Source: Candidatus Omnitrophota bacterium (GTDB lineage: Bacteria; Omnitrophota; Gorgyraeia; Gygaellales; Profunditerraquicolaceae). Taken from it: a stretch of 64,000 nucleotides of DNA. Both the position numbers and the translations under genes were made by a program. Under the pieces are notes generated by a model that was not told the DNA's origin, ran no database searches, and saw only the letters and a program-made list of their open reading frames with translations. Of the stretch, positions 8,761 to 59,132 are shown piece by piece (position 1 is the stretch's first letter; every line of letters begins with the position of its first letter). The stretch spans positions 913 through 64,912 of the forward strand of contig JAHIOW010000066.1 of the NCBI GenBank assembly GCA_018895075.1. The letters run 5' to 3'.

Positions 8761-8766
8761 AAGGTT

Positions 8767-23583: not shown

Positions 23584-24249
23584 CTAACTCTCGAATATTG
23601 CCCGGCCTAATCTTACCATATTAGAGCCTTCCTCTATTGCTACCCCAAAATCATCCGTCATGCCCATTGATAAAAGTTGTAAGTTGTAAGTTGTAAGTTG
23701 TAAATTATTAATTTTATCTCTTAGTTTCCGCAATAACCGGAAATAAGGCCTGGCTTTTTGAGGGTCATCTACAATTGGAGCAATAGTCATCAGGCCTTTG
23801 ACGTTTACGTTTTTAAATTCAACTATCTTTTTTATAACCTCAACTGCCTCTTCGGGTTTTAAGCCGGATTTGTTGGATTCAGCAGAAGTATTAACCTGGA
23901 GTAAGATGTCTTGAGTCTTATCTATCCGCGCTGCCTGTTTATCTATCTCAGAGGCCAAACGCAGGCTGTCTACGGACTGGATTAAATCAAAAATTCTTAC
24001 CACTTCTTTTACCTTATTAGTCTGTAAGTGGCCGACCATATGCCACTTTATAGTTTGGAGTTTTGAGTTATGAGTTATGAGTTCGTTATATTTAACGACT
24101 GCTTCCTGGACTCTGTTTTCTCCAATATCAGTTATGCCGGCTGCTATGGCTTCTTTTATTTGTTCCGGCGTCCTGGCCTTGCTTACAGCGACAATAGTTA
24201 CTGAATTAGGAATGTGCCCCCTTACCTTAAGGACATTGTCTCTGATCAT
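23584..24249 (-). CDS. yggS: YggS-family pyridoxal phosphate homeostasis protein
   Basis: PLP-binding Lys region AVSKARTPEQI, C-terminal SMGMTDDF...VRLGRAIF. Contains in-frame heptamer tandem repeats (gttgtaa x4 and gagttat x3). Confidence 0.8.
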   Translation of the reverse strand: MIRDNVLKVRGHIPNSVTIVAVSKARTPEQIKEAIAAGITDIGENRVQEAVVKYNELITHNSKLQTIKWHMVGHLQTNKVKEVVRIFDLIQSVDSLRLASEIDKQAARIDKTQDILLQVNTSAESNKSGLKPEEAVEVIKKIVEFKNVNVKGLMTIAPIVDDPQKARPYFRLLRKLRDKINNLQLTTYNLQLLSMGMTDDFGVAIEEGSNMVRLGRAIFES

Positions 24250-32973: not shown

Positions 32974-33006
32974 CTAACAAGTAATACTTATAACTTATGT
33001 CCTCGC

Positions 33007-41589: not shown

Positions 41590-41880
41590 TGTCCCTGCCT
41601 GCCGGCAGGCAGGGGGTTCCTCGGACGCCCTGCTCGAAATCAAGCCAAGCCAACCCCGCTAAGAAAACTTTGTCTAATTACTATGATGTCTTTGATTTTA
41701 GGGTTCTTGCTGGAGCGCGCATTAGGATTTTTTCGGCAAAGGTGCGCAAGGCTTTACGATGAGCGAAGGTCGTGCGTGTCGAAAGGCGCCTCCGAAAGCG
41801 AAGAGTAAACCGTAGCGCACGGCGAAAAAATCCAGCGCGCGCAAGACAAAACCCTGAAATCAACGTCTCATTGAACGAGA
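41590..41880. ncRNA. Candidate GC-rich structured ncRNA (long imperfect hairpin about 190 nt; 6S-like architecture); strand unresolved
   Basis: GC content is far above local background. Arms of about 35 nt (41701..41742 and 41821..41854) are near-perfect reverse complements (GGGUUUUGUCUUGCGCGCGCUGGAUUUUUUCGCC vs GGCGAAAAAAUCC..GCGCGC..GCAAGAACCC), and the stem continues inward (GUGCGC/GCGCAC). Only Arg-rich, artefact-like ORFs occur here. Confidence 0.3.
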
Positions 41881-43243: not shown

Positions 43244-43273
43244 TTAAATTCTCTCTTTCTAAAATATATTGCT

Positions 43274-43294
43274 CCCTGCCTGCCGGCAGGCAGG
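43274..43294. repeat. GC-rich perfect palindrome CCCTGCCTGCCGGCAGGCAGG (copy 2 of 3), a terminator-like hairpin after cca
   Basis: Identical palindrome at 41594..41613 and a variant at 46822..46842. The genome around it is AT-rich. Confidence 0.6.
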
Positions 43295-43300
43295 CATAAC

Positions 43301-44572
43301 TTATGTCCTCACTAACTTTTTGATCAATGCTAATTCTTCTTGTTTTGTTCTAATCCTACCATTGAGTTTTGCATTTAAAACCTCAGAGAAGATTTTCTGG
43401 TAATATGGACCGGGGGCAATACCCAATCCGGACAGATCATCTCCCGATATATACGGGCGCATGCCATTATAAATTTCAAAAAAATCCTTAATACGCCTTT
43501 GGATATTGCGGTTTTCAGACTTTGCTTTAATCAAAATGATTATCTCATAACTTAGAGGCTCAAGCAAACTAAAAATTATGGAGGGATTAACCTTAGCTCG
43601 ACTTAACCGGTGAATAAGTTTACTTCCAATTTTTTTATGGGCTAATATTCGTTTCTCTTCTCCTTTACGAAAGACGAATCTCTTACAGATTGCTTGAACA
43701 TGATTTATAGCCAGATTTTCTATCAAACCCATAAAATAAATAAGCCATGTATCCAGCGGCCTGCGCTGCGGATACTCTTGTCTAAACCATTTAATCTGCT
43801 TTTCAATCGCACGTAATAACTTATAAGTCCTCTTTGAAACAGAAAGTTCCAAAGCTATAAAATTGAACCCCAGCAACTGATGGATACGCCTTATCTGCTT
43901 TATAGGGCGTTCTTCTTTTAATATTAAAATTAACTCATCGCGTAGTCTTTGGGGTTGTACGCTCTCTAAAATTTTTAGTTTAACCGCTTTTTTTAAAAAG
44001 CCAAGCGTATCGGAATCAATTCTGAAATTATATCTTTTTTCAAACCGGATTGCCCTTAATATACGCGTAGGGTCATCAATGAAACTTAAATCATGTAATA
44101 TGCGTATCCTCTTATTGCGCAGGTCACCTTTGCCGCCAAAGGAATCTATAAACCTACCAAAGTCTCTTGGGGTTATACTTATAGCCATAGCGTTTATGGT
44201 AAAGTCACGTCTGGATAGGTCATCTTTTAGCCTGCCCTTGGCAACCTCTGGCAGACAGGCAGGTTGCGGATAAAATTCTTTTCTGGCGCTGGCAATATCA
44301 ATTTTTAAGTTAGATTTTATGACTATAGTGGCAGTTCCAAATCTTCTATGGCGGATAAGCTTTACCCCTAAGCTAGCAGCAAAATGTTCTGCGAATCTTA
44401 TGCCATCGCCTTCCACAACGATATCTAAATCTAAGTTCTTGGCGCCTAAGATTAAATCGCGTACGAATCCACCTACTAAATAGGCAGGCATCTTATTTTT
44501 AGCAGCAATATCACTGGCTAGATGTATCAAATCCTGAATTTCCTTAGGTAATTTCTCTAAATATTTTTTCAT
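43301..44572 (-). CDS. cca: CCA tRNA nucleotidyltransferase / poly(A) polymerase family with HD domain
   Basis: Pol-beta-like head LVGGFVRDLILGAKNLDLDIVVEG. C-terminal HD-like region. Confidence 0.8.
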   Translation of the reverse strand: MKKYLEKLPKEIQDLIHLASDIAAKNKMPAYLVGGFVRDLILGAKNLDLDIVVEGDGIRFAEHFAASLGVKLIRHRRFGTATIVIKSNLKIDIASARKEFYPQPACLPEVAKGRLKDDLSRRDFTINAMAISITPRDFGRFIDSFGGKGDLRNKRIRILHDLSFIDDPTRILRAIRFEKRYNFRIDSDTLGFLKKAVKLKILESVQPQRLRDELILILKEERPIKQIRRIHQLLGFNFIALELSVSKRTYKLLRAIEKQIKWFRQEYPQRRPLDTWLIYFMGLIENLAINHVQAICKRFVFRKGEEKRILAHKKIGSKLIHRLSRAKVNPSIIFSLLEPLSYEIIILIKAKSENRNIQRRIKDFFEIYNGMRPYISGDDLSGLGIAPGPYYQKIFSEVLNAKLNGRIRTKQEELALIKKLVRT

Positions 44573-44647
44573 CTTATTTAAGCTTTAAGCCGTAAGCTAT
44601 TAAGCTCTTTAAGCTTAAAACTTAAAACTTACAACTTACAGCTACCT

Positions 44648-45536: not shown

Positions 45537-46157
45537 TCAAATAAAAAAGGTATTGCTTTTCTTCTCCCCTCCTATAGTAGAAGATGGGCCATGGCCAGGG
45601 TAAATTACGGTATCATCAGGTAACTTAAGTAATTTATTTTTTATGGATTTTATAAGCAGCTTCTCATCTGCACCGGGAAAGTCGGTCCTGCCGATACCTT
45701 GGCAGAAGAGCGTATCGCCGGTAAATAAAACCTTACTGCAAGGCTTGCGCATTAATAGGCAGATTCCTCCTGGCGTATGGCCAGGCGTATGAATAACCTC
45801 TAATTGTATACCGTCTAATTCGATATTCTCTTTATCCTCTAGTGTTCTAATTTTAGAATTCAGGCTATAGGGCAACATAAGAAGATGGGACAGATTAAGT
45901 TCAGGATTTCTTGATAACGCTAAGTCTTTACTGTGAATATAAACAGGTATGTCAAATTTACCATCAGCGCCAATGTGGTCAATATGGGCATGGGTATTAA
46001 TAATAAATGCGGGCTTTAATTTATATTTGCCTAAGGCATACCTTATCTTATTCTCTTCATCGCCCGGGTCAATAATTACTGCCTCGGAGTCGGCACGAAC
46101 CGCCAGTATATAACAGTTAACCTGCATTGGCCCTACGCAGACCGTCTCTAGTATCAT
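45537..46157 (-). CDS. MBL-fold metallo-hydrolase (glyoxalase II-like)
   Basis: THAHIDHIG metal-binding motif and HTPGHTPG. Confidence 0.8.
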   Translation of the reverse strand: MILETVCVGPMQVNCYILAVRADSEAVIIDPGDEENKIRYALGKYKLKPAFIINTHAHIDHIGADGKFDIPVYIHSKDLALSRNPELNLSHLLMLPYSLNSKIRTLEDKENIELDGIQLEVIHTPGHTPGGICLLMRKPCSKVLFTGDTLFCQGIGRTDFPGADEKLLIKSIKNKLLKLPDDTVIYPGHGPSSTIGGEKKSNTFFI

Positions 46158-46312
46158 ATTAAATGAGCAGACGACTTATGGAACGCAAGTGAACATAAGT
46201 CGTAGGCGAAGCCGTCTGCGAATTTAACCCCTCACCCAGAAAACCATAGCTTTCTTTGCTGCTGGCTGGGTGAGGGGTAAGTTCGGACTGATAAATTATG
46301 TCGCTTATATCT
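46158..46312. repeat. Member of the mosaic multi-hairpin repeat family (AATGAGCAG stem / GCAA tetraloop / GAATTTAAC / CCCCTCACCCAG..CTGGGTGAGGGG hairpin / TAAGTTCGGAC)
   Basis: attaaatgagcagacgacttatggaacgcaagtgaacataagtcgtaggcgaagccgtctgcgaatttaacccctcacccagaaaaccatagctttctttgctgctggctgggtgaggggtaagttcggac. Confidence 0.65.
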
Positions 46313-48855
<2,543 letters not shown>

Positions 48856-49136: not shown

Positions 49137-49359
49137 TAGATCAAGTCGCAGTTATTAAACGCAGTGCGAACCTATTTTGAAAAATTGACTACTGAAATCT
49201 AATCTATGTTACCGCGCGCGGAGCGCGCTCCCACATCTCCCGCGCAGTGCTTCAGAGCCAATGGGCAAAATTTTGGGCGGGGGCAATGAAAACCGGTCTA
49301 TTTAAACCTTAGAAAGAACAGGAAAAATTTGCTTTGAATATGTCGCAAAAATGCTACTT

Positions 49360-50292
49360 TTACGACCTCCTCCTTATTAGGTCCGCCTCTCTGCGAAGAT
49401 TGTAGTAAAATCCTCCAAATGCACTCTTTGAACTGAGTCGAAGTCCCAATTTTTCTAATTGGCATTCCACATTAGGCCCAGCTAATGAAACGTCTATCCG
49501 CTTGGTGGGATCCATCTCCAACTCAAAAATACCTTCCCCAAGGTCGCGCCTATACTTAAAATCACCGGCTACGACCGTAGTACGAGTGATGGAAGCTTGT
49601 CCCTCAGTAGACCCCTCTTTAATCCTTTCAACTCTCCCGAACACAATCCCCAGGGGAGCAAGAAGAGATGCCTCATCTACAGAACCTTTGCTCCAGTGTT
49701 CTTCAATCCATTTAGCAATGTCCTTAACCAAAGCCTCCTTCTTGCTCTGCAAAAAAACAAGAAGTGTTTGACGCTCATTGAAGGTTTTAAACACATTGTA
49801 GGCCTCTTTGGAGTCTAATGTTCCATTTGCGAGATACTTGAGATAATCGAGAAACATCAAGCGGGTGGGAGAAATCTCTGTATCCATCACTAAAGCGTTC
49901 ACTACATCTTCACCCTTGGAGAAGTCAACACCATAGAGACGCAACCTTTGTCCATTTGTTACAAGCGCCCACGGAACACTAAGATTGCGAGCATAGCTTA
50001 GTGCTTGCCGGGCTGCAACCTCATCCAAATCTCCTGCTTTTGCTTCGACAACACAAATTGGAGTATCTCCAGACATTAGCGCATAATCAACCTTTTTTGT
50101 TTCGGATCCCATGGTCACTGGAAATTCATGGCGAACAAAATTGGGGTCGGTAGGATCCCAAAGCAAAGCAGTTAATAATGGTTCAATAAGGTATTTCTTT
50201 ACTTCAACCTCTGTCCATTTTTGGAACTGCTCTCTAAACGAGTTGACACGTTCGGCGTACTTTATAAGGTTATCGTTTATTTCTTCGCTCAT
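49360..50292 (-). CDS. PD-(D/E)xK nuclease-superfamily protein (HsdR_N / restriction-endonuclease-like N-terminal domain) with uncharacterized C-terminal domain; higher GC than surroundings
   Basis: VDYALMSGDTPICVVEAKAGDLD contains the D...E-x-K catalytic arrangement typical of the HSDR_N/Mrr fold. By eye the gene is more GC-rich than its flanks. Confidence 0.5.
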   Translation of the reverse strand: MSEEINDNLIKYAERVNSFREQFQKWTEVEVKKYLIEPLLTALLWDPTDPNFVRHEFPVTMGSETKKVDYALMSGDTPICVVEAKAGDLDEVAARQALSYARNLSVPWALVTNGQRLRLYGVDFSKGEDVVNALVMDTEISPTRLMFLDYLKYLANGTLDSKEAYNVFKTFNERQTLLVFLQSKKEALVKDIAKWIEEHWSKGSVDEASLLAPLGIVFGRVERIKEGSTEGQASITRTTVVAGDFKYRRDLGEGIFELEMDPTKRIDVSLAGPNVECQLEKLGLRLSSKSAFGGFYYNLRREADLIRRRS

Positions 50293-50398
50293 TCTGTCTC
50301 CTTGTATTTATTTGAGTGGCCAAACATATACTGGTTTTTCAACCTTAACTTCTCTGCTATCTGCTTGTTGTTGGCATCCTAAAATATGAGCACCTAAT

Positions 50399-50722
50399 TT
50401 ATTTTTTTAGGGTAGGACTGTCTTTTAATCTCCCACCCTGCCAGCCGGTATTTGAAACCTTTACAAAATCATGCAATTTACACTTTGAACAATACAGTTC
50501 AAAAGCAACGGTGAAATCTCTCTTGACCTTAGGGCGATCCTCTTTCGCATATTCAGCCGGCCCTTCATTTACAATACCAAAATCTAAAATCTGCAAGACG
50601 TGAGCGTTTCCACATTTAGAACAGAAGAAATAGAAGTAATCTGTGTCTGTTGTGCCGGTAAGTCTTCCATTACTTATATTCTCTGATCCATGAAAAGGTT
50701 TTCCATTATTGAATTTTTTCAT
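50399..50722 (-). CDS. Small zinc-ribbon protein (two CSKC motifs), hypothetical
   Basis: FFCSKCGNAH ... LYCSKCKLHDF. 107 aa, no known family recognised. Confidence 0.4.
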   Translation of the reverse strand: MKKFNNGKPFHGSENISNGRLTGTTDTDYFYFFCSKCGNAHVLQILDFGIVNEGPAEYAKEDRPKVKRDFTVAFELYCSKCKLHDFVKVSNTGWQGGRLKDSPTLKK

Positions 50723-50780
50723 TTTCCCTCTTAACTTTCCTACTTTCCTTCAAAATGCCACAGAGTTTATCGTCCAATCA

Positions 50781-51146
50781 TTATTTATTCTGCATTTTTA
50801 TATCATATTCTCTTCTGTCTGTGGGCATAGCCGAACCAAAATCCCCCGCTCTGCCGTATTGAACTACTTTTCCATTCTCTAATGTTACCCAAAAATACTC
50901 TCTATCCCCCCAAGTCGAATCCCAAGTAGGATATAGAACATATTCTAAAATTTCTTTATTGGATTGCCCTTTGGAGGAAACGGGAGTTCCCATTATTTTT
51001 ATTACTTCTACCTTAGTCATACCTAAACTTATAAGGTTACTTCTTTTTGTGGTAGCACACCCACACAACCCCATAAGAGAAAGCGTTAATATACAACAAA
51101 GACAAGTCATTACTATTTTGGATATCTTACCCATAACACACCTCAC
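50781..51146 (-). CDS. Lipoprotein with SmpA/OmlA (BamE-like) domain
   Basis: Signal peptide plus lipobox (SLMGLCGC). GMTKVEVIKIMGTPVSS resembles the BamE-fold consensus. Confidence 0.5.
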   Translation of the reverse strand: MRCVMGKISKIVMTCLCCILTLSLMGLCGCATTKRSNLISLGMTKVEVIKIMGTPVSSKGQSNKEILEYVLYPTWDSTWGDREYFWVTLENGKVVQYGRAGDFGSAMPTDRREYDIKMQNK

Positions 51147-51169
51147 TTTTTCTTGCTCTTTATCTCTCC

Positions 51170-51319
51170 TTACCTTTCCACCAGCATCTCTGCCGCCTCT
51201 TCTAGATCTTCCGGAAACACGTCAACATAATACCTCAATGTCGTCGCCACATCTGAATACTCTAAATATTTACTTTTACGAAGCAAAAATTTGGGTGAGT
51301 GCCGTAAGGCACGAACCTT
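51170..51319 (-). pseudogene. Tyrosine recombinase (phage integrase) C-terminal fragment, remnant copy 1
   Basis: Start-less minus-strand frame KVRALRHSPKFLLRKSKYLEYSDVATTLRYYVDVFPEDLEEAAEMLVER*. It matches the integrase C-terminal box (compare the XerD copy in this window, LGHANISTTQIYTHI) including the catalytic Tyr position. Upstream it is truncated by a stop. Confidence 0.55.
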
Positions 51320-51329
51320 TTATGCTGTG

Positions 51330-51806
51330 TTAACCGACGCTCTTTATAAATTCAACCACTCCCCAAATTACCATGAGTGATAACACAAATAAAATAGTAG
51401 CATAAAGAACATAAAACCCCCAGCCCCATAAACGGGTACATAATGTGACCGGGTTTTCAGAGAACCATTCATCGGGAAATACTCTTTTGTTATCAACTAA
51501 CCATTTGTCTAATTCTAACTTCTTTTGAATCTTAACCTGAATATTTCTTGCCGTAAGATAGTTTAAATGACATTTCCCACAGTAATAAATTGTCCAAAGA
51601 TATAATGAAGTTACTACAACCGCCAAAACAATTTTGACCCATAAAAAAGGTATTTCTATTTTGTTTAACAAAAATAATCCGATAAAACCGAAATAAAAGG
51701 CTGATGTAAAAGTAAGTATCCTTATTGGCCAATCTCTATATCTGTTAATCTCTTCGATTAAAGGCGGGTGTATAAGCTTGAGTTTCTCTATATCATTCTC
51801 ATTCAT
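51330..51806 (-). CDS. Hypothetical membrane protein (3-4 TM helices)
   Basis: Hydrophobic segments FTSAFYFGFIGLFLL, IVLAVVVTSLYLWTIYY, FYVLYATILFVLSLMVIWGVV. Flanked by two copies of the integrase-remnant repeat. Confidence 0.45.
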   Translation of the reverse strand: MNENDIEKLKLIHPPLIEEINRYRDWPIRILTFTSAFYFGFIGLFLLNKIEIPFLWVKIVLAVVVTSLYLWTIYYCGKCHLNYLTARNIQVKIQKKLELDKWLVDNKRVFPDEWFSENPVTLCTRLWGWGFYVLYATILFVLSLMVIWGVVEFIKSVG

Positions 51807-51899
51807 TTTATGGATCTCCCTTAAGAATGTCGGCTAACTTCAAATAACCGAACTACTTCGTCTATGCTCCCAAATTGGCATATTTTGCGAAGTATTTTG

Positions 51900-51990
51900 T
51901 CACTTCTGTGCCAGCATCTCTGTTGTCTCTTCTAGATCTTCCGGAAACACATACACATAACGCCTTAACTAATCACGCATCTGAATGTTT
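51900..51990 (-). pseudogene. Tyrosine recombinase C-terminal fragment, remnant copy 2 (frameshifted)
   Basis: LRRYVYVFPEDLEETTEMLAQK*. About 50 nt are near-identical to 51186..51236, and the upstream part is frameshifted relative to copy 1. Confidence 0.45.
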
Positions 51991-52030
51991 TAGATCTTGA
52001 GAATGACCTACCTTAAATTCTTTTGCGATG

Positions 52031-52375
52031 TTATGTAACATCCTTTAGAATTTGTTCCACCTCTGCTTTTAGCGTCGGAATATCTTTTCTTGTCGTAGAC
52101 CAAACTGCATTGATATCTACTCCAAAGTAATCATGAATAAGCTTATCTCGCATTCCTGCTATGTCTTTCCAGGGGATATTGGGGTATTTGTTTCGTATGG
52201 TAGAGGAAATCCTTTTAGCTGCTTCTCCAATGATTTCGGTCTGCCGAATGACCCCGTCTTGAAGAAGCATGGTCTTGGTAAAAGTCTCCTCATTAACCCC
52301 GGAAAGATATCCTTCAATTCTAGCAATCGCATCTAAAATATGCTTTAGGTATATTGTATCATCCCGCTCTTTCAT
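52031..52375 (-). CDS. hepT: HepT-like (DUF86, HEPN) toxin of a HepT/MNT toxin-antitoxin pair
   Basis: R-x4-H-x-Y motif RDKLIHDY. 114 aa, 17-nt overlap with the upstream MNT gene. Confidence 0.8.
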
Positions 52376-52655
52376 AAACTACCTCCATCTCATTTTTAAT
52401 CCTGTCTTTTAAATACGGGCTGATAGAGGCTTCGGTTAATAAATCTGCCTTTCTGCCCAAAACCTCTGAAAGCACTCTTTCAATCCTTACAATATCGAGC
52501 AAACTCTTAGGCTTAGAAAAACGAGCTAAAAGATCAATATCGCTCTCTTCTGTAAAGTCACCTGTTACAAAAGAGCCAAATATTGCCAAGAATACAATGT
52601 CATTATTTTTGCATATTTCGAGTAACTTCTTTTTATTATTAATAGCACCTCTCAT
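52359..52655 (-). CDS. mntA: Minimal nucleotidyltransferase (MNT) antitoxin
   Basis: [17 protein letters not shown] nucleotidyltransferase motif (GS...D.D). 98 aa. Confidence 0.8.
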
Positions 52656-52716
52656 AATCTCCTCTTTTTATCTGATGTTGCTCTCTTTCTCTTCTAAAAA
52701 TCCACCAAGTCAAATC

Positions 52717-52794
52717 TGGTCGGGGAGGTGGGACTTGAACCCACGACCTTTTGGTCCCGAACCAAACGCGCTACCAAACTGCGCTACTCCCCGA
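52717..52794 (-). tRNA. tRNA-Pro (anticodon CGG)
   Basis: Minus-strand sequence TCGGGGAGTAGCGCAGTTTGGTAGCGCGTTTGGTTCGGGACCAAAAGGTCGTGGGTTCAAGTCCCACCTCCCCGACCA. It has a 7-bp acceptor stem, D and T arms, GTTCAAGTCC T-loop, anticodon loop TTCGGGA, encoded CCA, and close similarity to bacterial tRNA-Pro. Confidence 0.85.
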
Positions 52795-52859
52795 ATAATC
52801 ACTTAAATCTTAAATAACTCAAGTATTTTAGATAAGTATAACAGAAATCAGAAAGGTAA

Positions 52860-53107
52860 GCAATAATAATGCTTATTTCGCGGCGAAGTTAACATAAGTG
52901 AGTGCACAATTTATGGAACGACAGTGTCCGCCGAAGGACGGATCAGCCTTCGACTGAAACATAAATTGTCTGCACGAACTTACCCCTCACTCAGAAAACC
53001 ATAGATTTCTTTGCTGCTGGCTGAGTGAGGGGTTAAATTCAGACATACAACTTACGTCATTTCATTCCGTAAGTTGTGTCTTCATTTAACACAAGTTATC
53101 GGAGGTA
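52860..53107. repeat. Mosaic multi-hairpin repeat element, long copy A (between tRNA-Pro and ribE)
   Basis: cataagtgagtgcacaatttatgg...tccgccgaaggacgga...cataaattgtctgcacgaacttac-CCCCTCACTCAG..CTGAGTGAGGGG-ttaaattcagacatacaacttacgtcatttcattccgtaagttgtgtcttcatttaaca. Confidence 0.7.
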
Positions 53108-53677
53108 TTAACTCTTTTGCTTAAGGAGGTCGAATTCGATATTGACCTTATCTGATGGTCCCTTAAACCCAAGGGTAGTGTTTTTAAGGGTGTGCGGAAT
53201 TATATATATACTGAAGGTATTGGATTTTTTCTCTGCAATAGTAAGACTTATCCCATCAACCGCAATAGAGCCCCGGGGTAAAATATACCCTATAAATTTT
53301 GGGGGGAAGGCAATCTCAAAACAAAAATTATTATTAATATAACTTTTCTTACGGATAATCCCTATACAATCAACATGCCCGCTAACAAAATGTCCAGAAA
53401 GCCTGTCCCCTATTCTTAAAGCGCGCTCTAAATTTACCTTATCTCTAATTCTTAATGGCCCTAAATCTGTAATCTCAAGGGTCTTGGGCATAACTTCAAA
53501 ACTTAAGGTATCTTTTTCCTTTTTTATGACCGTAAGGCAGGTACCATTTACAGAAATACTATCGCCGACCCCGGTATCCTCCAGTGTCTTTTCTGCCTTG
53601 ATTTCCAAGAGCGTGACTGCACCCCGCCTAGATATCCTTCTGATTTGGCCTAATTCTTCAACAATCCCACTAAACAT
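53108..53677 (-). CDS. ribE: Riboflavin synthase (alpha subunit)
   Basis: MFSGIVEELGQI... N-terminus (the ORF table starts 4 codons earlier at 53689; Met 53677 fits the family). Duplicated lumazine-binding repeats. Confidence 0.85.
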   Translation of the reverse strand: MFSGIVEELGQIRRISRRGAVTLLEIKAEKTLEDTGVGDSISVNGTCLTVIKKEKDTLSFEVMPKTLEITDLGPLRIRDKVNLERALRIGDRLSGHFVSGHVDCIGIIRKKSYINNNFCFEIAFPPKFIGYILPRGSIAVDGISLTIAEKKSNTFSIYIIPHTLKNTTLGFKGPSDKVNIEFDLLKQKS

Positions 53678-53689
53678 AAGTAAGTGCAC

Positions 53690-53863
53690 AATTTATGGAG
53701 CGAAAGCGTCCGCCGAAGGCGGATCAGCCTGCGGCTGAAACATAACTTATTTGGCCGAACTTACCCCGCACCAATTTGTGATTAATGACGTATCCATTAC
53801 AAATTAGTGCGGGGTTAAATTCAGACATACAACTTACTTCATTTCATTCCGTAAGTTGTGTCT
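53690..53863. repeat. Mosaic multi-hairpin repeat element, long copy B (between ribE and ribD)
   Basis: Collinear with copy A over cataagtaagtgcacaatttatgg...tccgccgaaggcgga...gaacttac and ttaaattcagacatacaacttac(t)tcatttcattccgtaagttgtgtcttcatttaaca. The central hairpin is replaced by CCCCGCACCAATTTGT..ACAAATTAGTGCGGGG. Confidence 0.7.
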
Positions 53864-54961
53864 TCATTTAACATATCCTTCTACTAAGAAATCTCCGCCT
53901 AGGCGTGTTAATTTAACATCTTTTAATTTAACTGCCTTCTCTATCCGCGCTATACCCTTACCCATTACTGAACTAATCGCTTCTTTACCGCCAATAATCT
54001 TGGGGCTTATAAAAAATAACACCTTATCCACAAGGCCCTCATCAAATAAAGAACCGATTAAAGTCCCTCCGCCTTCAACCAGAATATTGCTGATTCCCAT
54101 GCGCGCTAGTTTCTTCATCATATCCTTTAAATTTATCTGTCCTTCTTTCTCTTTCGCTTCTAAAATCCTGGCCTGAGCAGCTAACAATCCCCTATTCTCT
54201 GTTTCCTGGCCGACCTCCTCCGTTAAGGTAACAATGATGACGGAACTATTTTTTGAAAATATTTTTGCCTCCTGCGGAGTGCTCAACTGGCTGTCCACGA
54301 TAATCTTCTGCGGCTGTCGTCTTGAAAACCATGCCTCCAGAGCCGGATTATCCCTTAAAATAGTATTTACACCCACTATTATGGCATCATAATTTTGACG
54401 CAAGCGGTGGGCATAAGTACGCGCCTTATCTGAAGTTATCCATTTAGAATCAGCGGTCTTAGTGGCAATCTTACCGTCTAAAGATTGGGCTACTTTGACT
54501 GTAACAAAGGGCACCCTTTGAGTAATATATTTTATAAAGACCTCGTTCTGCGCCTTTAATTTGTCTTCTAAGAAGCCCACCTTCACTTTGATCCCGTGTT
54601 GCCTAAGCATATTGATTGCGCCTCCATTAGTTAGAGGATTAGGATCAATCATGCCTATTATAACTTCTCTTATTCCACTCCTTACAATTTTATCCACGCA
54701 AGGCGGGGTCTTGCCGAAATGTACACAGGGCTCCAGCGTCACATACAAAGTAGCGCCTTTTGCAAGTCTTCCTGCATCATCTAAAGCAATTGCCTCTGCA
54801 TGAGCAAGGCCTGCCTTATGATGATAGCCTCGGCCTACAACGCGGCCATTCTTTACTATCATGGCGCCTACCAGAGGATTAGGATAAGTCTGACCTTTTG
54901 CTTTTTCAGCCAGCCTCATTGCCAGGTTCATAAAGTAGACGTGGTCTTTTTTATATTTCAT
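53864..54961 (-). CDS. ribD: Bifunctional diaminohydroxyphosphoribosylaminopyrimidine deaminase / 5-amino-6-(5-phosphoribosylamino)uracil reductase
   Basis: Deaminase motifs HAEAIAL and PCVHFGKTPPC. C-terminal reductase domain. Start is probably Met 54961 (MKYKKDHVYFMNLA), giving a 4-nt overlap with the upstream gene rather than the 55054 start in the ORF table. Confidence 0.85.
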   Translation of the reverse strand: MKYKKDHVYFMNLAMRLAEKAKGQTYPNPLVGAMIVKNGRVVGRGYHHKAGLAHAEAIALDDAGRLAKGATLYVTLEPCVHFGKTPPCVDKIVRSGIREVIIGMIDPNPLTNGGAINMLRQHGIKVKVGFLEDKLKAQNEVFIKYITQRVPFVTVKVAQSLDGKIATKTADSKWITSDKARTYAHRLRQNYDAIIVGVNTILRDNPALEAWFSRRQPQKIIVDSQLSTPQEAKIFSKNSSVIIVTLTEEVGQETENRGLLAAQARILEAKEKEGQINLKDMMKKLARMGISNILVEGGGTLIGSLFDEGLVDKVLFFISPKIIGGKEAISSVMGKGIARIEKAVKLKDVKLTRLGGDFLVEGYVK

Positions 54962-55779
54962 AACTCTTTTCTTGCTTCCTTTAGTCTTTCTACCAGTACA
55001 TAGGGTATCTTTATGGATCCTATCTTGACTGCTGGTTTTGCCAGGCCATGACAATCAGAGCCACCGGTAACTAATAAATTAAATTTTTTGGCTAAATCAA
55101 GATAAAAATTCACCATTGACTGGGTATGCTCAGGATAATATACTTCTAAACCCATAAGCCCATAATCAATAAACCGGGATATTAACTCATCTCTGTTAAC
55201 AGTATAGGGATGTGCCAAGACTGGTATACCGCCTGCGTCCCTGATTAATTTTATGGCCTCCTGGGTTGATAATTTAAAATCCAGGACACAGGCAGGGCAT
55301 TTATCACCGATATATTTTCTAAAAGCCTCTGCGGTAGAGCTTATCTGGCCAACTTTTACCATTGCCTGGGCAATATGCAGCCTACTTACTATACCGCCTC
55401 TGGCCATCGCAAATACAGCTTTGGGTTCTAATTCTATATTCATACCTTTTAGTTTATCTATTATTTTATAGGCGCGTTCAATGCGGTTTTTCTTCAAAGA
55501 ATCTAATTCTCCCATCAGCCTCTTATTTTTGTAATCAATTAAATAACCTAGAATGTGTATCTCTTTGCCGTCGTACTCGCTACTAAGTTCTATACCGGCT
55601 AAGACCTCTATGTTTTTTGATTTGGCTGCCTTAAAAGTAGCCTCAACTCCATCAACTGTATCATGATCAACAAGGCCAATTGCAGATAGGTCTCTCTTGG
55701 AGGCCTCTAAGATAAGTTCCTGGGGCGTATATGTACCATCAGAGAAAAGAGTATGCAGGTGCAGATCAGCAAATCTCAT
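54958..55779 (-). CDS. PHP-domain phosphoesterase (TrpH/YciV-like)
   Basis: MRFADLHLHTLFSDGT...GLVDHDTVDG polymerase-and-histidinol-phosphatase motifs. Confidence 0.7.
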   Translation of the reverse strand: MRFADLHLHTLFSDGTYTPQELILEASKRDLSAIGLVDHDTVDGVEATFKAAKSKNIEVLAGIELSSEYDGKEIHILGYLIDYKNKRLMGELDSLKKNRIERAYKIIDKLKGMNIELEPKAVFAMARGGIVSRLHIAQAMVKVGQISSTAEAFRKYIGDKCPACVLDFKLSTQEAIKLIRDAGGIPVLAHPYTVNRDELISRFIDYGLMGLEVYYPEHTQSMVNFYLDLAKKFNLLVTGGSDCHGLAKPAVKIGSIKIPYVLVERLKEARKEL

Positions 55780-56209
55780 CGGTTTTTCTTTCTAATTTTA
55801 CTTTATCCAGAATGCCATTGACGAATTTGGATGCCTCCAGGCTAGAGTATTTTTTGGCAAGCTCCACTGCCTCATTTATAGAGACTTTGAGAGGGATATC
55901 GTGACAAAACATAAGTTCAAAACTCCCCAGGCGTAATATATTCTTATCTACAACTGCGATACGCGACAGTTGCCAGTTAGTAGCATATTGACTGATCTTT
56001 ATATCAATTTTTTCTAAATTGCCTCTAACTCCTTTGACAAGTTGAGAAGTGAAATTCTTCACCTCCTCTTCTATATTCTCTTTAGCCTGCGCCTGCCAGA
56101 AATTACTCAAAGAAACTTCATAGCTGTCCTGGGAGATATCCATCTGGTAAAGAATCTGTAAGGCAAATTCACGCGCCTTTGTACGTTTACGCATATTTAA
56201 TGAGCGCAT
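55766..56209 (-). CDS. nusB: Transcription antitermination factor NusB
   Basis: KAREFALQILYQMDI N-terminus, all-helical NusB fold, in rib context. Confidence 0.85.
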   Translation of the reverse strand: MRSLNMRKRTKAREFALQILYQMDISQDSYEVSLSNFWQAQAKENIEEEVKNFTSQLVKGVRGNLEKIDIKISQYATNWQLSRIAVVDKNILRLGSFELMFCHDIPLKVSINEAVELAKKYSSLEASKFVNGILDKVKLERKTDEIC

Positions 56210-56276
56210 AACTTACGGAATGAAATGACGTAAGTTATATGCGCGAATTTAATCCGCCGAAGGCGGATATCCATAT
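56210..56276. repeat. Short mosaic repeat element (GCGCATAACTTACG-GAATGAAATGA-CGTAAGTTAT hairpin plus GAATTTAA-TCCGCCGAAGGCGGA)
   Basis: The loop GAATGAAATGA is the reverse complement of the loop TCATTTCATTC in copies A and B. The stems covary (GCGCATAACTTACG vs GACATACAACTTACG). Confidence 0.6.
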
Positions 56277-56750
56277 TTACTTAATCTGGGTTAATAGATT
56301 TACCATCTCAATAGCGCTTAATGCAGCATCCCGGCCTTTATTGCCTTCTTTTGTCCCTGAGCGTTCAATTGCCTGTTCAATAGTATCGACAGTAATAATC
56401 CCAAAGATTACTGGTAGGCCTGTGTCCTGGCTAACTCTGGCTACGCCTTTGGCTGCCTCTTGGGCAATATACTCAAAATGAGGGGTTGAACCACGGATAA
56501 TAGTACCTAAGCAAATCAAGGCATCAAAGGATTTAGACTTAGCAATTTTCTGGGCAACAGTGACAATCTCAAATGCACCGGGAACCCAGGTAACTACCAA
56601 GTCCTCTTCTTGCGCCGCGTGCCTCTTCAATGTATCCAGGCACCCAGAAACTAATTCCTTAGTGATAAAATCATTGAAGCGCGAAGCAATAATAGCGAAT
56701 TTTTTACCCTTGGCAATGAAATTTCCTTCTATTACTTTAACCATATACAT
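56277..56750 (-). CDS. ribH: 6,7-dimethyl-8-ribityllumazine synthase
   Basis: [11 protein letters not shown]..., 157 aa, lumazine synthase fold. Confidence 0.9.
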
Positions 56751-56929
56751 CTACCTCCTTTCTTAAATGAGCACATAACCCCGAAACTTCGGGGTTATGT
56801 GTGCGAATTTAACCCGATAGCAACGAGAAAATTTAGAATAAATTTTCGAAGTGTTTTGCTATCGGGATAGTTCGGACACATAACTTATGTCGTCCCGAGA
56901 TTTTGAGACTCCATAAGTTATGTCCTCAC
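56751..56929. repeat. Mosaic repeat element (CATAACCCCGAAACTTCGGGGTTATG hairpin; GAATTTAAC-CCGATAGCAA..TTGCTATCGGG-ATAGTTCGGAC; CATAACTTATG..CATAAGTTATGTCCTCAC)
   Basis: Same GAATTTAAC...TTCGGAC frame as other copies but a different central hairpin. Ends with the 18-nt motif CATAAGTTATGTCCTCAC abutting the ribBA stop codon. Confidence 0.6.
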
Positions 56930-58150
56930 TTATATTTTTAAATAGTGGCCTAATTTTTCTTTTTTAGTCTTAAGGTACCGGTAATTTAAGGGATTAGGTT
57001 TGATCTCTAAAGGAATACGTTCAACGACGTTGAGGCCATAACCTTTTAATCCTACGATCTTGCGTGGATTATTAGTAAGAAGCCTGATATTCTTAATCCC
57101 TAAATCCACCAAAATCTGCGCCCCTATCCCGTAATCCCGCAAGTCCGGCTTGTGCCCTAAGGCCTCATTTGCCTGGATCGTATCTAATCCTTTATCTTGT
57201 AAACCATAGGCGCGGATTTTATCGATCAGCCCAATACCGCGGCCTTCCTGGCTCATATAAAGAATGGCTCCTTTCTTCTCTCTTGCGATAATCTCCATAG
57301 CCTTCTTCAGTTGCCTCCCGCAATCACAACGTAAAGAACCAAATACATCACCGGTAAGGCATTCAGAATGTACACGCACCAACACTGCCGGATCGCCTAA
57401 TTCGCCCATTGTCAGGGCAATATGAAAATGGTTATTGGTTAGGTCTCGATATAAAATTAATTTGAATGTTCCGAATTCTGTGGGAATAACTGTTTCAGAA
57501 ATCCTCTCAATCAATTTTTCAATCTGCCTTCGGTATTGAATAATGTCAGCGATAGAACAAATCTTTAGATTATGCTGCTGGGCAAAACCAAGTAGCTGTT
57601 TAAGCCTTGCCATTGTGCCATCGTCATTCATAATCTCGCATATTACGCCCGCAGGATAAAGTCCACACAAGCGCATCAGGTCTACTGTTGCCTCGGTATG
57701 ACCTGCCCTGACCAAAACACCGCCTTTCTGTGCTTTTAAAGGAAAGATATGGCCTGGACGAATAAGGTCATCGGGTTTGCTCTGAGTATCAATGAGCGCC
57801 TCTATGGTCCTGGCGCGATCATAGGCAGAAATACCTGTAGTGATTCCTCTGGCAGCGTCTACTGATACTATCCAGGCAGTAGAGAAAGGGTCTTTTATAT
57901 TTGGTGTTCTTTTATCTCTGACCATTGCCTGTAAAGACAACTCATTTAATCTTTGTTCTTCCATCGGCACACAAATGAGCCCTCTGCCACTCTTAGCCAT
58001 AAAATTTATATCTTCCGGCCTAACAAAGGAAGCGGCCATTACCAGGTCACCTTCGTTCTCGCGGTCCTGGTCATCCGCCACAATAACCATTCGGCCTGAT
58101 TTCAAATCCTCTAGTATCTCTGGAATAGAATTAAACATAAGTGAGTGCAC
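56930..58150 (-). CDS. ribBA: Bifunctional 3,4-dihydroxy-2-butanone-4-phosphate synthase / GTP cyclohydrolase II
   Basis: DHBP synthase motif DRENEGDLVMAA. GTP cyclohydrolase II zinc cysteines (ECLTGD...CDCG). Confidence 0.9.
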   Translation of the reverse strand: MHSLMFNSIPEILEDLKSGRMVIVADDQDRENEGDLVMAASFVRPEDINFMAKSGRGLICVPMEEQRLNELSLQAMVRDKRTPNIKDPFSTAWIVSVDAARGITTGISAYDRARTIEALIDTQSKPDDLIRPGHIFPLKAQKGGVLVRAGHTEATVDLMRLCGLYPAGVICEIMNDDGTMARLKQLLGFAQQHNLKICSIADIIQYRRQIEKLIERISETVIPTEFGTFKLILYRDLTNNHFHIALTMGELGDPAVLVRVHSECLTGDVFGSLRCDCGRQLKKAMEIIAREKKGAILYMSQEGRGIGLIDKIRAYGLQDKGLDTIQANEALGHKPDLRDYGIGAQILVDLGIKNIRLLTNNPRKIVGLKGYGLNVVERIPLEIKPNPLNYRYLKTKKEKLGHYLKI

Positions 58151-58190
58151 AATTTACAGAACGCAAGTGAATGTAAATTGTCTGCTCATT

Positions 58191-58215
58191 AAAAAAACCC
58201 GAAGAAATCTTCGGG
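58191..58215 (-). terminator. Rho-independent terminator (attenuator of the FMN riboswitch leader)
   Basis: Minus-strand RNA reads GACCCGAAGAUUUCUUCGGGUUUUUUUAAU, a 7-bp GC-rich stem plus a U7 tract, between the riboswitch and the ribBA start. Confidence 0.65.
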
Positions 58216-58264
58216 TCAGTGATATTTCGCCATACTGCCTGGCGAGCCCGCCACGTTTTGTGGC

Positions 58265-58460
58265 GGAAATCTTCTCCCATCTAGACTTTGCATCCAATCC
58301 TATTTGTTGGATTGGTGTCCGCTTATGCGGAACTATCGGCTCTGGAATTGACCAGATCTACCCCACACCCAGAAACCCATAGCCTTATTTTTGCTGGCTG
58401 GGTGTGGGGCTCGCGGGCTAAACCGCCGGTCAGGACTTTCACCTTACCCCGAAGATTAAC
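58265..58460 (-). promoter_or_regulatory. FMN riboswitch (RFN element) in the ribBA leader, carrying a ~70-nt insertion in its variable P3 region
   Basis: Minus strand reads CUUCGGGGUAAGGUGAAAGUCCUGACCGGCGGUUUAGCCCGCGAGCC...CCGCAUAAGCGG...GGAUUGGAUGCAAAGUCUAGAUGGGAGAAGA. It matches the conserved FMN aptamer blocks (GGGCAGGGUGAAAUUCCCGACCGGCGGUAGUAAAGC... and GCCGACAGUGAAAGUCUGGAUGGGAGAAGGA). Confidence 0.8.
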
Positions 58461-58468
58461 TTTATACT

Positions 58469-58496
58469 ATTATAACAAAAAAACTTAGCTTGTCAA
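58469..58496 (-). promoter_or_regulatory. Sigma-70-type promoter of the rib operon (TTGACA-16-TATAAT)
   Basis: Minus strand TTGACAagctaagtttttttgtTATAATagtataaa. -35 maps to 58491..58496 and -10 to 58469..58474, immediately upstream of the riboswitch. Confidence 0.55.
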
Positions 58497-58529
58497 TGAT
58501 TTAAAAAACAATATAATATAAGTGAGACC

Positions 58530-58658
58530 ACAACTTAGCGAACACAAGTGAAGCTAAGTTGTAGGGTCGAAGTTATCCGCCTTCGGCGGATTAAATTCGC
58601 ACAAATAACTTACCTCGCTTTATTTAATAGAAAGCTCCGTAAGTTATGTGCTCATTTA
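58530..58658. repeat. Mosaic repeat element in inverted orientation (TCCGCCTTCGGCGGA-TTAAATTCGCAC; CATAACTTACC; CCGTAAGTTATGTGCTCATT)
   Basis: Reverse complement of modules seen at 52920, 53724, 56248 (TCCGCCGAAGGCGGA/GAATTTAA) and of AATGAGCA...CATAACTTACGG. The element abuts the cinA start codon. Confidence 0.55.
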
Positions 58659-59132
58659 ATGGAACACATATTAAATCAAATACATAGCCTGCTCATAAAA
58701 AATAAAAAAAAGATTGCTATAGCAGAATCCTGCACAGGCGGCCTCCTTTCTAATCTTCTGACCCGGATTCCAGGAAGCTCCCATTACTTTATTTTAGGAA
58801 TAGTTGCTTATAGTAATAAAGCAAAGGGAACTATTTTAAAAATCCCCGCTCCGCTGATCAATAAAAGAGGCGCGGTCTCAAAAGAAGTAGCCAAAAAGAT
58901 GGCTAAGGCAATCAGAAAGTTGGCTCAAAGCCACATCGGCATAGCTATAACTGGCATAGCTGGTCCAGGCGGCGGGACTCCCCAGAAACCAAAAGGCACA
59001 ATATTTATCGCTATAGATAGTAAGACAAAAAAAATCTCTGAAAGATTTATTTTTAAGGGTAATAGGCTTGCGGTGAGAAAAATAGCAGCATTAAAAGCCT
59101 TAAGGCTATTAAAGCGTGTACTTAAAAAATGA
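58659..59132 (+). CDS. CinA C-terminal domain protein (PncC-family nicotinamide-nucleotide amidohydrolase)
   Basis: IAIAESCTGGLLSNLLTRIPGSS motif. Start chosen at MEHILNQ (58659) rather than 58548, which would read through repeat sequence. Confidence 0.75.
   Translation: MEHILNQIHSLLIKNKKKIAIAESCTGGLLSNLLTRIPGSSHYFILGIVAYSNKAKGTILKIPAPLINKRGAVSKEVAKKMAKAIRKLAQSHIGIAITGIAGPGGGTPQKPKGTIFIAIDSKTKKISERFIFKGNRLAVRKIAALKALRLLKRVLKK

Follow-up and report, generated by a model that had tools for sequence, protein, structure and literature searches.

Among the closest described counterparts of the elements considered here are the repetitive extragenic palindromes (REP) and the bacterial interspersed mosaic elements (BIMEs). 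REP are short imperfect palindromes with a conserved GT(A/G)G head, and two unit subtypes are combined in alternating orientation with specific linkers in BIMEs (Y and Z palindromic units) or REP doublets (PMC2817692). For selfish repeats that secondarily act at the RNA level, REP and the Correia elements provide precedents (PMC2817692 and PMC3184786). In the present work, we analyzed a 64,000-nt stretch of DNA from a Candidatus Omnitrophota bacterium (assembly GCA_018895075.1, contig JAHIOW010000066.1, positions 913 to 64,912; hereafter, the window), in which a preliminary description had pointed out at least nine mosaic multi-hairpin repeats, mainly in the spacers of the rib operon. Omnitrophota are abundant, uncultured, small-celled bacteria. 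The repeats are structured and non-coding, consist of dimorphic units, have a fixed polarity, are placed at gene boundaries to the nucleotide, and are turned over between species and strains. They apparently represent a large and hitherto undescribed family of palindromic, non-coding repeats in Candidatus Omnitrophota, and we hold with moderate confidence that this family resembles REP/BIMEs and MITEs (miniature inverted-repeat transposable elements), spreads at the DNA level, and is transcribed within operons.

Like REP, BIMEs, and REPINs, the Omnitrophota elements are extragenic yet transcribed palindromes whose palindromy is kept by complementary changes, and like BIMEs they join two unit subtypes into inverted composite mosaics. 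The REP units of E. coli are reportedly often found right after stop codons within operons, an observation said to come from Liang, Rudd, and Deutscher in 2015. In contrast to REP and BIMEs, (i) the Omnitrophota unit is two to three times longer, (ii) it starts not with GT(A/G)G but with TAA[G/A]TGAG (TAAGTGAG or TAAATGAG), (iii) its stems are AT-rich rather than GC-rich, (iv) its composites contain an exchangeable central hairpin, and (v) their ends overlap stop and start codons. Moreover, RAYT/REP systems are described for Proteobacteria, whereas the present host belongs to a candidate phylum of the PVC group, and no rayt gene (a Y1 transposase gene, flanked in RAYT/REP systems by two inverted units) was found among the 0.95 Mb searched.

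Correia elements (CREE) and other bacterial MITEs such as RUP, ERIC, and Nezha share with the Omnitrophota elements a length of 100-350 bp, terminal inverted repeats, TA termini, the lack of a transposase open reading frame (ORF), presence or absence between strains, co-transcription with neighboring genes, and a stable RNA fold (PMC3184786). Unlike in these families, each terminal repeat of an Omnitrophota element is a complete hairpin unit, the polarity relative to the flanking genes is fixed, and a target-site duplication is inseparable from the termini. Unlike CREE and MITEs, the family is found in at least about 80 species-level genomes rather than in one genus and has no evident promoter or IHF site, and unlike typical MITEs it has no cognate insertion sequence (IS) among the loci examined.

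Other families share single features with the Omnitrophota elements. MIRU (mycobacterial interspersed repetitive units), the subject of work attributed to Supply et al. in 1997, are said to occupy intercistronic operon spacers, with ends overlapping the upstream stop and the downstream start, and to be direct tandem repeats with small in-frame ORFs thought to allow translational coupling. The Omnitrophota elements are likewise intercistronic with stop- and start-overlapping ends; unlike MIRU, they are palindromic, contain stops in the reading frames, and show no modulo-3 constraint. They also resemble the BOX elements of S. pneumoniae as modular mosaics of a few types with a stable RNA fold. 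Neisseria REP2 carries a ribosome-binding site (RBS) and an ATG used by downstream genes (PMC3184786); similarly, the alpha 5' arm serves as Shine-Dalgarno (SD) sequence and ATG at two Omnitrophota loci (L075 and L088; contigs and loci from other genomes are designated by L and a number). Unlike the Omnitrophota elements, BOX and REP2 have other module sequences and another logic (BOX is a boxA-boxB(n)-boxC tandem), with no stop overlap or dimorphic inverted units. The family is assigned to no named family, though it is of the general REP/BIME/MITE kind.

Repeat unit and its two subtypes

Alignment of copies from the window and from other genomes revealed a hairpin unit of 55-110 nt as the building block, with the consensus TAA[G/A]TGAG-NNC-AYAAnTTAYG-GA-loop-GA-CRTAAnTTRT-(nn)GNN-C-GAA[C/T]TTA. 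It is made up of a conserved head (TAA[G/A]TGAG), a stem of quasi-palindromic sequence (AYAAnTTAYG / CRTAAnTTRT), and, as its tail, GAA[C/T]TTA. The five initial bases pair with the five final bases, GNNC pairs with GNNC, and one 10-nt arm pairs with the other; tandem G-A mismatches (5'-GA-3' opposite 5'-GA-3') are present at two sites of the unit. Short loops are mostly mini-stems with GNRA or GAA caps, and long loops contain additional mini-hairpins. Each arm is itself quasi-palindromic, so the two arms read nearly alike on duplex DNA.

Two subtypes are set by position 4 and its partner: alpha with G..C and beta with A..T. Among 110 units, 66 are alpha and 43 are beta, with a single exception to this coupling. 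The two stem modules that the preliminary description had listed separately are one hairpin unit in two subtypes and two orientations. The remaining module, a clamp GAATTTAAC...GTTAAATTC, consists of 3' tails (GAAYTTA) that belong to two inverted units and flank a distinct central hairpin. In the window, the head motif TAARTGAGNNC occurs 7 times versus 1.19 expected, and 0 of 100 shuffled sequences reach 7.

Copies in the window

A covariance model (CM) of the unit was built from the aligned copies and searched against the window and the fetched loci. In the window, it recognized 13 units (E from 3e-4 to 4e-13): two stand singly, one is a minimal one-hairpin element with both heads, and the others form five composites; 12 of the 13 are located within 46-58.7 kb. 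Related sequence was recovered at all nine previously proposed sites (by self-BLAST, repeat families, and the CM); one of them, 58361-58409, is the P3 stem of a riboswitch, whereas the borders of the others were refined to the following eight elements, to which two solo remnants were added.

16361-16466, minus strand: composite in sense orientation (counted as an alpha-beta composite of 110 nt) between genes 16464-17390 (stop TAA 16464-16466) and 15458-16267; degenerate alpha remnant TAAGAGTATGACTTA, central hairpin 16429-16452, inverted beta 16361-16428
46160-46347, minus strand: canonical composite, 188 nt; CM 58.6 and 43 bits; alpha 46278-46347(-), central hairpin 46227-46278, beta 46160-46226(+)
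52895-53092, plus strand: composite, 198 nt, antisense to the rib genes, between ribE and tRNA-Pro; CM 47.9 and 69 bits; alpha 52895-52980(+), central hairpin 52982-53033, beta 53034-53092(-)
53677-53872, plus strand: composite, 196 nt, antisense, between ribD and ribE; CM 30.3 and 60.9 bits
56197-56270, plus strand: single beta unit (56197-56251) and small hairpin ATCCGCCGAAGGCGGAT, between ribH (stop 56277) and nusB
56764-56932, minus strand: canonical composite, 169 nt, between ribBA and ribH; CM 60.6 and 43.6 bits; alpha 56867-56932(-), central hairpin 56812-56866, beta 56764-56811(+)
58138-58192, plus strand: minimal one-hairpin element with both outer heads (TAAGTGAG...CTCATTAA); CM 49.6 bits
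58519-58658, plus strand: composite, 140 nt, forming the whole 5' leader of a plus-strand cinA-like gene (ATG 58660; CinA from Pfam); CM 57.7 and 60.7 bits; alpha 58519-58575(+), central hairpin TCCGCCTTCGGCGGA, beta 58592-58658(-)
43295-43321, minus strand: solo alpha 5'-arm remnant (TTAGTGAGGACATAAGTTATG) overlapping the stop of gene 43301-44572 and followed by the mini-palindrome GCCTGCCTGCCGGCAGGCAGG
32990-33014, minus strand: solo alpha 5'-arm remnant (TAGGCGAGGACATAAGTTAT) beginning at the TAG stop of gene 33007-34095

The rib operon occupies 52.8-58.7 kb on the minus strand, in the order promoter (a perfect sigma-70-like one), flavin mononucleotide (FMN) riboswitch, terminator, ribBA, ribH, nusB, a PHP-domain gene, ribD, ribE, and tRNA-Pro(CGG). 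To identify the genes, we relied on the Pfam annotation of the corresponding GenBank contig and on analyses of the window itself:

58265-58460, minus strand: FMN riboswitch (Rfam match)
56930-58137, minus strand: ribBA (Pfam of the GenBank contig)
56277-56750, minus strand: ribH (Pfam of the GenBank contig)
53108-53677, minus strand: ribE, with its start confirmed by the 189-aa database protein P0001
52717-52793: tRNA-Pro(CGG)

As observed previously, the elements separate ribBA, ribH, nusB, ribD, ribE, and tRNA-Pro, whereas other operons in the window have abutting genes.

The alpha TAA of 56764-56932 (56930-56932) is the ribBA stop codon, and the beta unit of this composite ends with CTCATTTAA, followed by GAAAGGAGG and the ribH ATG. 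In the antisense composite 53677-53872, the beta head provides the final codons and the stop of ribD (GT-TAAATGA), and the alpha head gives the A of the ribE ATG (CACTTACTTA followed by TG). The beta head of 56197-56270 faces the nusB ATG (GCGCTCATTAAATATG; CM 67.1 bits, E 1e-12), and the minimal element 58138-58192 is placed between the terminator of the FMN riboswitch (58217-58196) and the ribBA ATG (CACTCACTTA followed by TG). In the composite 46160-46347, the beta unit ends with CTCATTTAAT immediately ahead of the ATG of a Lactamase_B gene (45537-46157), and the alpha TAA is located 31 nt downstream of the stop (46313-46315) of a 183-aa ORF (46313-46864). The beta unit of the 16-kb element (16361-16428, plus strand) matches the CM with 42.9 bits (E 4e-7). 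The composite 58519-58658 begins 1 nt past the -10 box of a promoter-like site, TTGTCA-16-TATAAT (58490-58517).

This site is a member of a back-to-back pair of promoter-like sites (58469-58517), in which TTGTCA-16-TATAAT points toward the cinA-like gene and TTGACA-16-TATAAT (12/12, with TG) toward the riboswitch and the rib operon. The elements also affect gene calls: GenBank annotates a 56-aa ORF inside element 46160-46347 (L133 1329-1499), ORFs 53108-53689 and 56930-58150 extend ribE and ribBA to a GTG within the alpha head (GTGCAC TCA CTT ATG), and the ribBA gene calls of L125 and L127 likewise start inside an element.

Composite architecture

The standard element consists of an alpha unit, an exchangeable GC-rich central hairpin, and an inverted beta unit, so that heads stand at both outer ends. 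We collected 41 composites with lengths of 110-348 nt; the 37 two-headed ones comprise 35 alpha-beta and 2 beta-beta arrangements and no alpha-alpha one. Both outer ends read inward as TAARTGAG-NNC-AYAAnTTAYGG, i.e., as terminal inverted repeats of the MITE type with no transposase gene between them.

The central hairpins have recurrent types of their own that are freely swapped between composites. One of them (94% identical) is found in two window composites of opposite orientation and keeps its own absolute orientation (family D4). In one metagenome-assembled genome (MAG), JAPLLS, near-identical modules of a central hairpin and a beta unit are located upstream of three unrelated genes at non-orthologous loci (L015, L083, and L099).

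Only 2 of the 41 composites have a stop-free frame, versus 3.2 expected, and 39 are closed in all three frames; lengths are distributed 7/20/14 modulo 3, with no multiple-of-three rule. A MIRU-like relay by a mini-ORF, or translational coupling through it, was rejected on the same grounds: closed frames and lengths that are not multiples of three. A site scan of 52600-58800 revealed neither terminators nor promoters inside the elements, and no element stem is followed by the U-tract of an intrinsic terminator. The sole terminator-like site in the intergenic spacers of this region is that of the riboswitch (58217-58196), and none follows an element; five other listed sites are within the riboswitch or coding sequence. 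Since they have stops in three frames, lengths that are not multiples of three, and no terminator-like site, the composites are non-coding and presumably transcribed through.

A tRNA-like cloverleaf closed by the two outer heads was also considered; RNAfold gives such a closure for one copy and not for two others. It was rejected because the units close on themselves (alpha by G-C and beta by A-U, with 0 exceptions among 49 units), whereas closure across units would need systematic G.U and C.A pairs.

Two further kinds of hairpins were observed in the spacers. The mini-palindrome CCTGCCTGCCGGCAGGCAGG is repeated in window spacers 41590-41612 and 43272-43295 and is also found within unit loops or linkers of other species (L026, L046, and L064), thus resembling a further small insertable hairpin. 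Another intergenic kind has tandem-heptamer arms, e.g., AAAAGTC.../...GACTTTT, AATTACC.../...GGTAATT, or AAGTTGT repeats; it occurs in the window at 18115-18190, 21783-21890, 8680-8765, 23674-23712, and 44599-44643, and in some rib spacers of the relative L003 (1364-1445 and 1914-2007).

Placement at gene junctions and polarity

Of 62 alpha heads, 41 have a TAA that ends an ORF of 70 or more codons, compared with 8 of 64 beta heads (Fisher p = 5e-10) and with a baseline of 4% for random TAA triplets in the same loci. The beta heads look toward the starts of genes: read in the sense direction, an element terminates with CTCATTTA or CTCATTAA, immediately followed by AGGAGG..ATG or by ATG itself, and the SD or ATG is 0-15 nt away from the beta end. 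In 35 of the 41 composites, the start codon of a long ORF is located at most 25 nt past the beta end, usually with AGGAGG right after this end. In the window, five elements have the sense and three the antisense orientation; in the antisense copies, the ATG of ribE or ribBA is completed by the alpha head (CACTTA-TG) with no SD sequence.

A replication-strand rule of the IS200/IS605 kind, with the top strand on the lagging-strand template, is unsupported; in the window, two alpha units are found on the minus strand and four on the plus strand. Among the 41 composites, a GC-skew proxy predicts orientation less well than does the direction of the downstream gene, skew and gene strand being confounded.

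Several observations concern other uses of the unit ends. In five genomes, a beta unit starts at the nucleotide right after a tRNA 3' end with no encoded CCA; the boundaries are L002 2294/2295, L019 5585/5586, L107 5000/5001, L108 3461/3462, and L117 5445/5446, and the preceding genes encode tRNAs for Thr, Lys, Gly, Ser, and Leu. L075 (~6386-6500, plus strand) and L088 (~4153-4260, plus strand) contain a 5' arm (TAAGTGAGGGCATAAATTATGG or TAAATGAGGACATAAGTTATGG) that stands alone, with no hairpin partner, and gives an SD-like GAGG and the ATG of radC-like (MELKKRIPINNWPKEDRPREKLL) and dnaA-like (MDAAATQIWSKILEKV) genes, as identified by eye. On the mRNA strand, the beta end of the composites (UGCUCAUUAA/UGCUCAUUUAA; e.g., 56764-56775 on the minus and 58648-58658 on the plus strand) is one or two mismatches away from the core of the E. 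coli rrn boxA (UGCUCUUUAA), maybe by chance. A likeness to dif/Xer sites and loxP arms, seen by eye, was discarded, because the spacing disagrees with that of Xer and Cre sites.

Distribution across genomes

We scanned bacterial and archaeal genomes, one per species, for a degenerate head pattern of 22 nt and obtained at least 129 matches in at least 120 stretches from at least 83 assemblies (counted by accession prefix). Among the matches listed, nearly all are labeled Candidatus Omnitrophota/Omnitrophica or come from MAGs labeled Planctomycetia/Planctomycetales with the same complete elements, and two (a Heimdallarchaeota MAG and a Nitrospira MAG) are chance-like 22-mers without a hairpin; a 2-kb contig of a 'Methanobacteriota' bin with a full element is probably mis-binned. 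These matches place the family in at least about 80 species-level genomes.

The CM detected 165 units in 100 of the scanned loci and 37 units in 24 further loci. REP/BIMEs are extragenic and number more than 100 copies per genome; the copies of the present family are extragenic throughout, at a density of 13 units per 64 kb in the window and with at least seven loci from the MAG UBA1562. Several short-read contigs end within elements, as is expected of multi-copy repeats, which break assemblies. The family is therefore neither local nor limited to one species. Both the dispersal and the REP/BIME/MITE-like character proposed in the preliminary description are supported by the inverted dimorphic pairs, the terminal inverted repeats, and the spread over at least 83 assemblies (two of them by chance).

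The impression that the repeats match no characterized RNA class also held. No Rfam family matches the elements; in the window, only FMN and tRNA pass the gathering threshold, and E-value scans of 52800-57000 and 58100-58700 gave only sub-threshold generic hairpin matches for the elements. In full-text literature, no description of Omnitrophota repeats was found.

Gain and loss between species and strains

For comparison, we retrieved the syntenic rib operons of relatives with a RibE 66-78% identical to that of the window, and the same junctions were found empty, singly occupied, or full. The ribBA-ribH junction is empty in L125, where 21 nt separate the genes (TAA AATAAGAAAAGGAGGAGAGAG ATG, also given as TAA AATAAGAAAAGGAGG..ATG). 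In the window and L123, it contains alpha/beta composites whose loops are unrelated, as are their central hairpins, in the arrangement TAA[GTGAG...CTCAT(T)]TAA-(G)AAAGGAGG; in L127 and L003, it contains unrelated hairpins. The ribD and ribE genes overlap in L122 and L123 (GGTTATGTTTAGC), are 1 nt apart in L003 and L125, and are separated by a single inverted unit in L127 and by a composite in the window. The unit upstream of ribBA is present in the window, L003, L125, and L127 and absent in L123. The empty junctions of L003 and L122 are real vacancies, since their genomes carry the family at other loci.

Polymorphism is also observed between strains. Strain contig L131, with flanks 99.8% identical to the window, lacks ~172 nt of composite 52895-53092, and in strain contig L132 the alpha loop of the same composite is without a 31-nt doublet of mini-hairpins (52927-52957); this doublet is also present in a further unit of the window and in a different species (L061). 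Together with the empty and filled junctions of L003, L122, L123, L125, L127, and the window, this amounts to insertion polymorphism of the MITE type. At the 46-kb and 16-kb elements, the strain contigs break off within the element, or no record of the protein exists. A search for a clean empty site downstream of ribE with the pattern GCGAAGTTAACA N{0,20} CACAAGTTATCGGAGG gave no match in JGI metagenomes. An excess of strain single-nucleotide polymorphisms in the elements, considered as a sign of gene conversion, was rejected, as only 1 of 19 falls within an element.

A strain-variable island of 3.6 kb (49149-52718) adjoins the 3' end of tRNA-Pro(CGG) and is absent from L131; it includes an NTP_transf_2/HepT toxin-antitoxin-like pair (52031-52655), a gene for an HSDR_N protein (49360-50292), and small ORFs. 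In the relative L125, tRNA-Pro is followed directly by an acylphosphatase gene.

Covariation of the stems

We analyzed covariation in 49 short-loop units from many genomes, with 19 stem pairs and thus 931 cells. Standard pairs are formed in 98.4% of the cells, and changes on both sides are found at 8 of the 19 pairs, in 131 cells. The covariation score of 0.356 is compared with 0.124 +/- 0.009 for shuffled data, where 0 of 500 shuffles reach it, and pairing falls to 20-37% if the partner is slid by 1-3 columns. The most variable pairs (that of position 4 and its partner, and those between GNN and both N in NNC) are unconstrained by the way the units were collected. The compensatory stem changes first noticed in the window thus hold across genomes, and neither finding that would have spoken against a structured family, i.e., missing covariation or copies at one locus only, was made. 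Whole composites fold far better than their shuffles (z from -6.7 to -12), for instance 46160-46347 with -70.8 kcal/mol (z -6.65) and 56764-56932 with -76 kcal/mol (z -12.0).

Only 4 of the 931 stem cells are G.U pairs. In addition, the unit is strand-asymmetric, with a CM score of 69 bits on one strand versus 21 bits on the other, because the G-A mismatches and the purine-capped loops sit on the TAARTGAG strand in both subtypes. Since this asymmetry is common to both subtypes, the favored strands of alpha and beta are opposite within a composite, as in REP doublets. The scarcity of G.U pairs and the strand asymmetry speak in favor of pairing being maintained in the DNA rather than in the RNA. 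A part of the covariation certainly reflects descent from different master copies, not compensation in place.

Possible hairpin modules in the FMN riboswitch

The site 58361-58409 belongs to the extended P3 stem-loop of the FMN riboswitch:

58360-58411, minus strand: extended P3 stem-loop, a 39-nt insertion in P3 of the Rfam FMN alignment

This extension is not a hairpin unit of the repeat family. It resembles the central hairpins 46227-46278 and 52982-53033 (65% identity ungapped, family D4; ~85% with one gap in a hand alignment). The relative L123 has a compact P3, so the extension is dispensable. These data suggest that hairpin modules also land in the loops of a functional riboswitch, with the Rfam match kept. 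The FMN aptamer measures 122 nt in L123 (367-488), 196 nt in the window, 217 nt in L127 (128-344), and 248 nt in L125 (439-686), the difference being extra hairpins in P2, P3, and the loop of the last hairpin.

Proposed mode of spread and alternative explanations

The reading that we favor is spread at the DNA level into TA(A) sites, usually the TAA stop codon at a gene junction, presumably by a trans-acting enzyme or by recombination between copies. After insertion, the site would be TAA[GTGAG...CTCAT(T)]TAA, with the TAA duplicated or regenerated; the upstream gene would keep its stop, and the downstream SD or ATG would directly follow the element. Insertion would be tolerated even in overlapping genes, because the heads contain stops in two frames (TAA and TGA) and are able to complete an ATG (TTA-TG). 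In mRNA, such an element is predicted to form three side-by-side, almost fully Watson-Crick hairpins and to act as an inert or mildly modulating spacer rather than as a terminator or coding sequence. The polarity may stem from selection on the transcript or from an asymmetric target, as TAA has this reading on the coding strand only; the antisense copies abut TTA-TG, which gives TAA on the opposite strand.

Several points weigh against this reading. No transposase, RAYT, or autonomous same-ended copy was found in the 0.95 Mb that comprise the window and more than 120 loci: tblastn with IS608 TnpA and E. coli RayT (approximate query sequences, hence a weak test) gave nothing below E = 0.19, and a head without a hairpin partner beside a transposase-like ORF was not seen in the loci examined. 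The vacant allele of L131 is not clean, as TAAGTGAGCA is left at the site, and the filled sites, TAA[GTGAG..CTCAT(T)]TAA versus a single TAA in the empty orthologue, leave a target-site duplication inseparable from the TAA/TTA termini. The head and stem are conserved over many species-level genomes, among them the relatives with a RibE 66-78% identical to that of the window, which is longer than usual for a purely selfish MITE, and functional RNA, too, typically has GNRA/GAA-capped loops and tandem G-A pairs. Even with alpha on the C-rich strand, orientation follows the downstream gene in 5 of 8 cases, which hints at selection on the transcript. Finally, orthologues of the unit upstream of ribBA differ by paired double substitutions, with ATAATTTATG/CATAAATTAT in L125 versus ATAACTTATG/CATAAGTTAT in L127 and the rest conserved, and ..TTTACA/TGTAAA.. 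in the window versus ..TTTATG/CATAAA.. in L003; such changes imply maintenance in place.

The same orthologues, retained in four species with compensatory double changes, speak for a different explanation, which we regard as possible but tentative: the elements would be a host-functional RNA that punctuates operons, with mobility being secondary. The alpha hairpin, immediately past the stop codon, would shield the 3' end of the upstream cistron, and the beta hairpin, immediately ahead of the SD, would shield or insulate the 5' end of the downstream one; processing, e.g., by RNase III, would take place at the central hairpin, and the compact fold would keep the stop and the next start close and the untranslated stretch closed to Rho. 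This is consistent with the strong, transcription-linked polarity, the match of the element ends to stop codons, SD/ATG, and tRNA 3' ends (five genomes) to the nucleotide, the conservation of unit sequence over at least about 80 species-level genomes, the capped loops and G-A pairs, the ability of the 5' arm to serve as SD and ATG of real genes in L075 and L088, and the lack of a U-tract, from which read-through is expected. However, the sites are dispensable: a junction may be empty, single, or full in relatives, and a composite is absent from a near-identical strain. Three of the eight window elements are antisense to genes, and the favored strand with G-A pairs and purine loops is the mRNA strand for alpha only and antisense for beta. 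Four G.U cells in 931 are unusual for RNA stems evolving in place, a closed four-way junction would need systematic G.U and C.A pairs while the units self-close perfectly, and after tRNAs the elements begin with beta rather than alpha. Mobile repeats and RNA punctuation are not mutually exclusive.

Somewhat more speculative is the idea that the composites are an orientation-specific 'cistron junction module', a portable RNA device, or else that the family is moved by a TAA-specific, strand-reading enzyme that recognizes hairpins of single-stranded DNA. If true, the junction module would be a mobile cassette providing a stop codon, a hairpin for the upstream 3' end, a processing hairpin, and a 5'-end hairpin presenting the next RBS, and operons could be punctuated, and differentially stabilized or translated, with such a portable RNA device.

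It is improbable that a chromosomal protein (compare gyrase, IHF, and Pol I at BIMEs) or a recombinase binds the repeats as duplex or hairpin DNA, so that they would have a role in nucleoid or replication organization and not one as RNA or mobile DNA. The palindromic 11-mer CATAAnTTATG in each arm (four per composite), the near identity of the arms on duplex DNA, and the strictly Watson-Crick pairing agree with this explanation, as does the binding of several proteins by BIMEs (PMC2817692 and PMC3184786). It leaves unexplained, however, the nucleotide-exact stop/start placement, the alpha-to-beta polarity, and the compensatory intrastrand pairing, including the variable NN outside the 11-mer; moreover, copies are clustered in some operons (12 of 13 window units in 46-58.7 kb) rather than spaced along the chromosome. 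Local duplications, chance AT-rich palindromes, ordinary terminators, or small coding genes, for which the annotated 56-aa ORF inside 46160-46347 and the commonness of spacer hairpins could be quoted, are refuted with near certainty by head-motif and CM scores far beyond chance, copies in at least 83 assemblies, the lack of a U-tract with the only intergenic terminator-like site belonging to the riboswitch, stops in three frames, and lengths distributed 7/20/14 modulo 3.

Implications for Omnitrophota genomes

The repeat breaks short-read assemblies and causes spurious gene calls and misplaced starts; since it misleads both assembly and gene calling, the CM is of practical use for the annotation of Omnitrophota. 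The family is also a clean natural case of structured DNA inserted at the exact seam between cistrons without breaking the operon, even in overlapping genes or beside a riboswitch. Its gain and loss at the strain level provide a new system for studying the spread of REP/BIME-type elements and their possible co-option by hosts.

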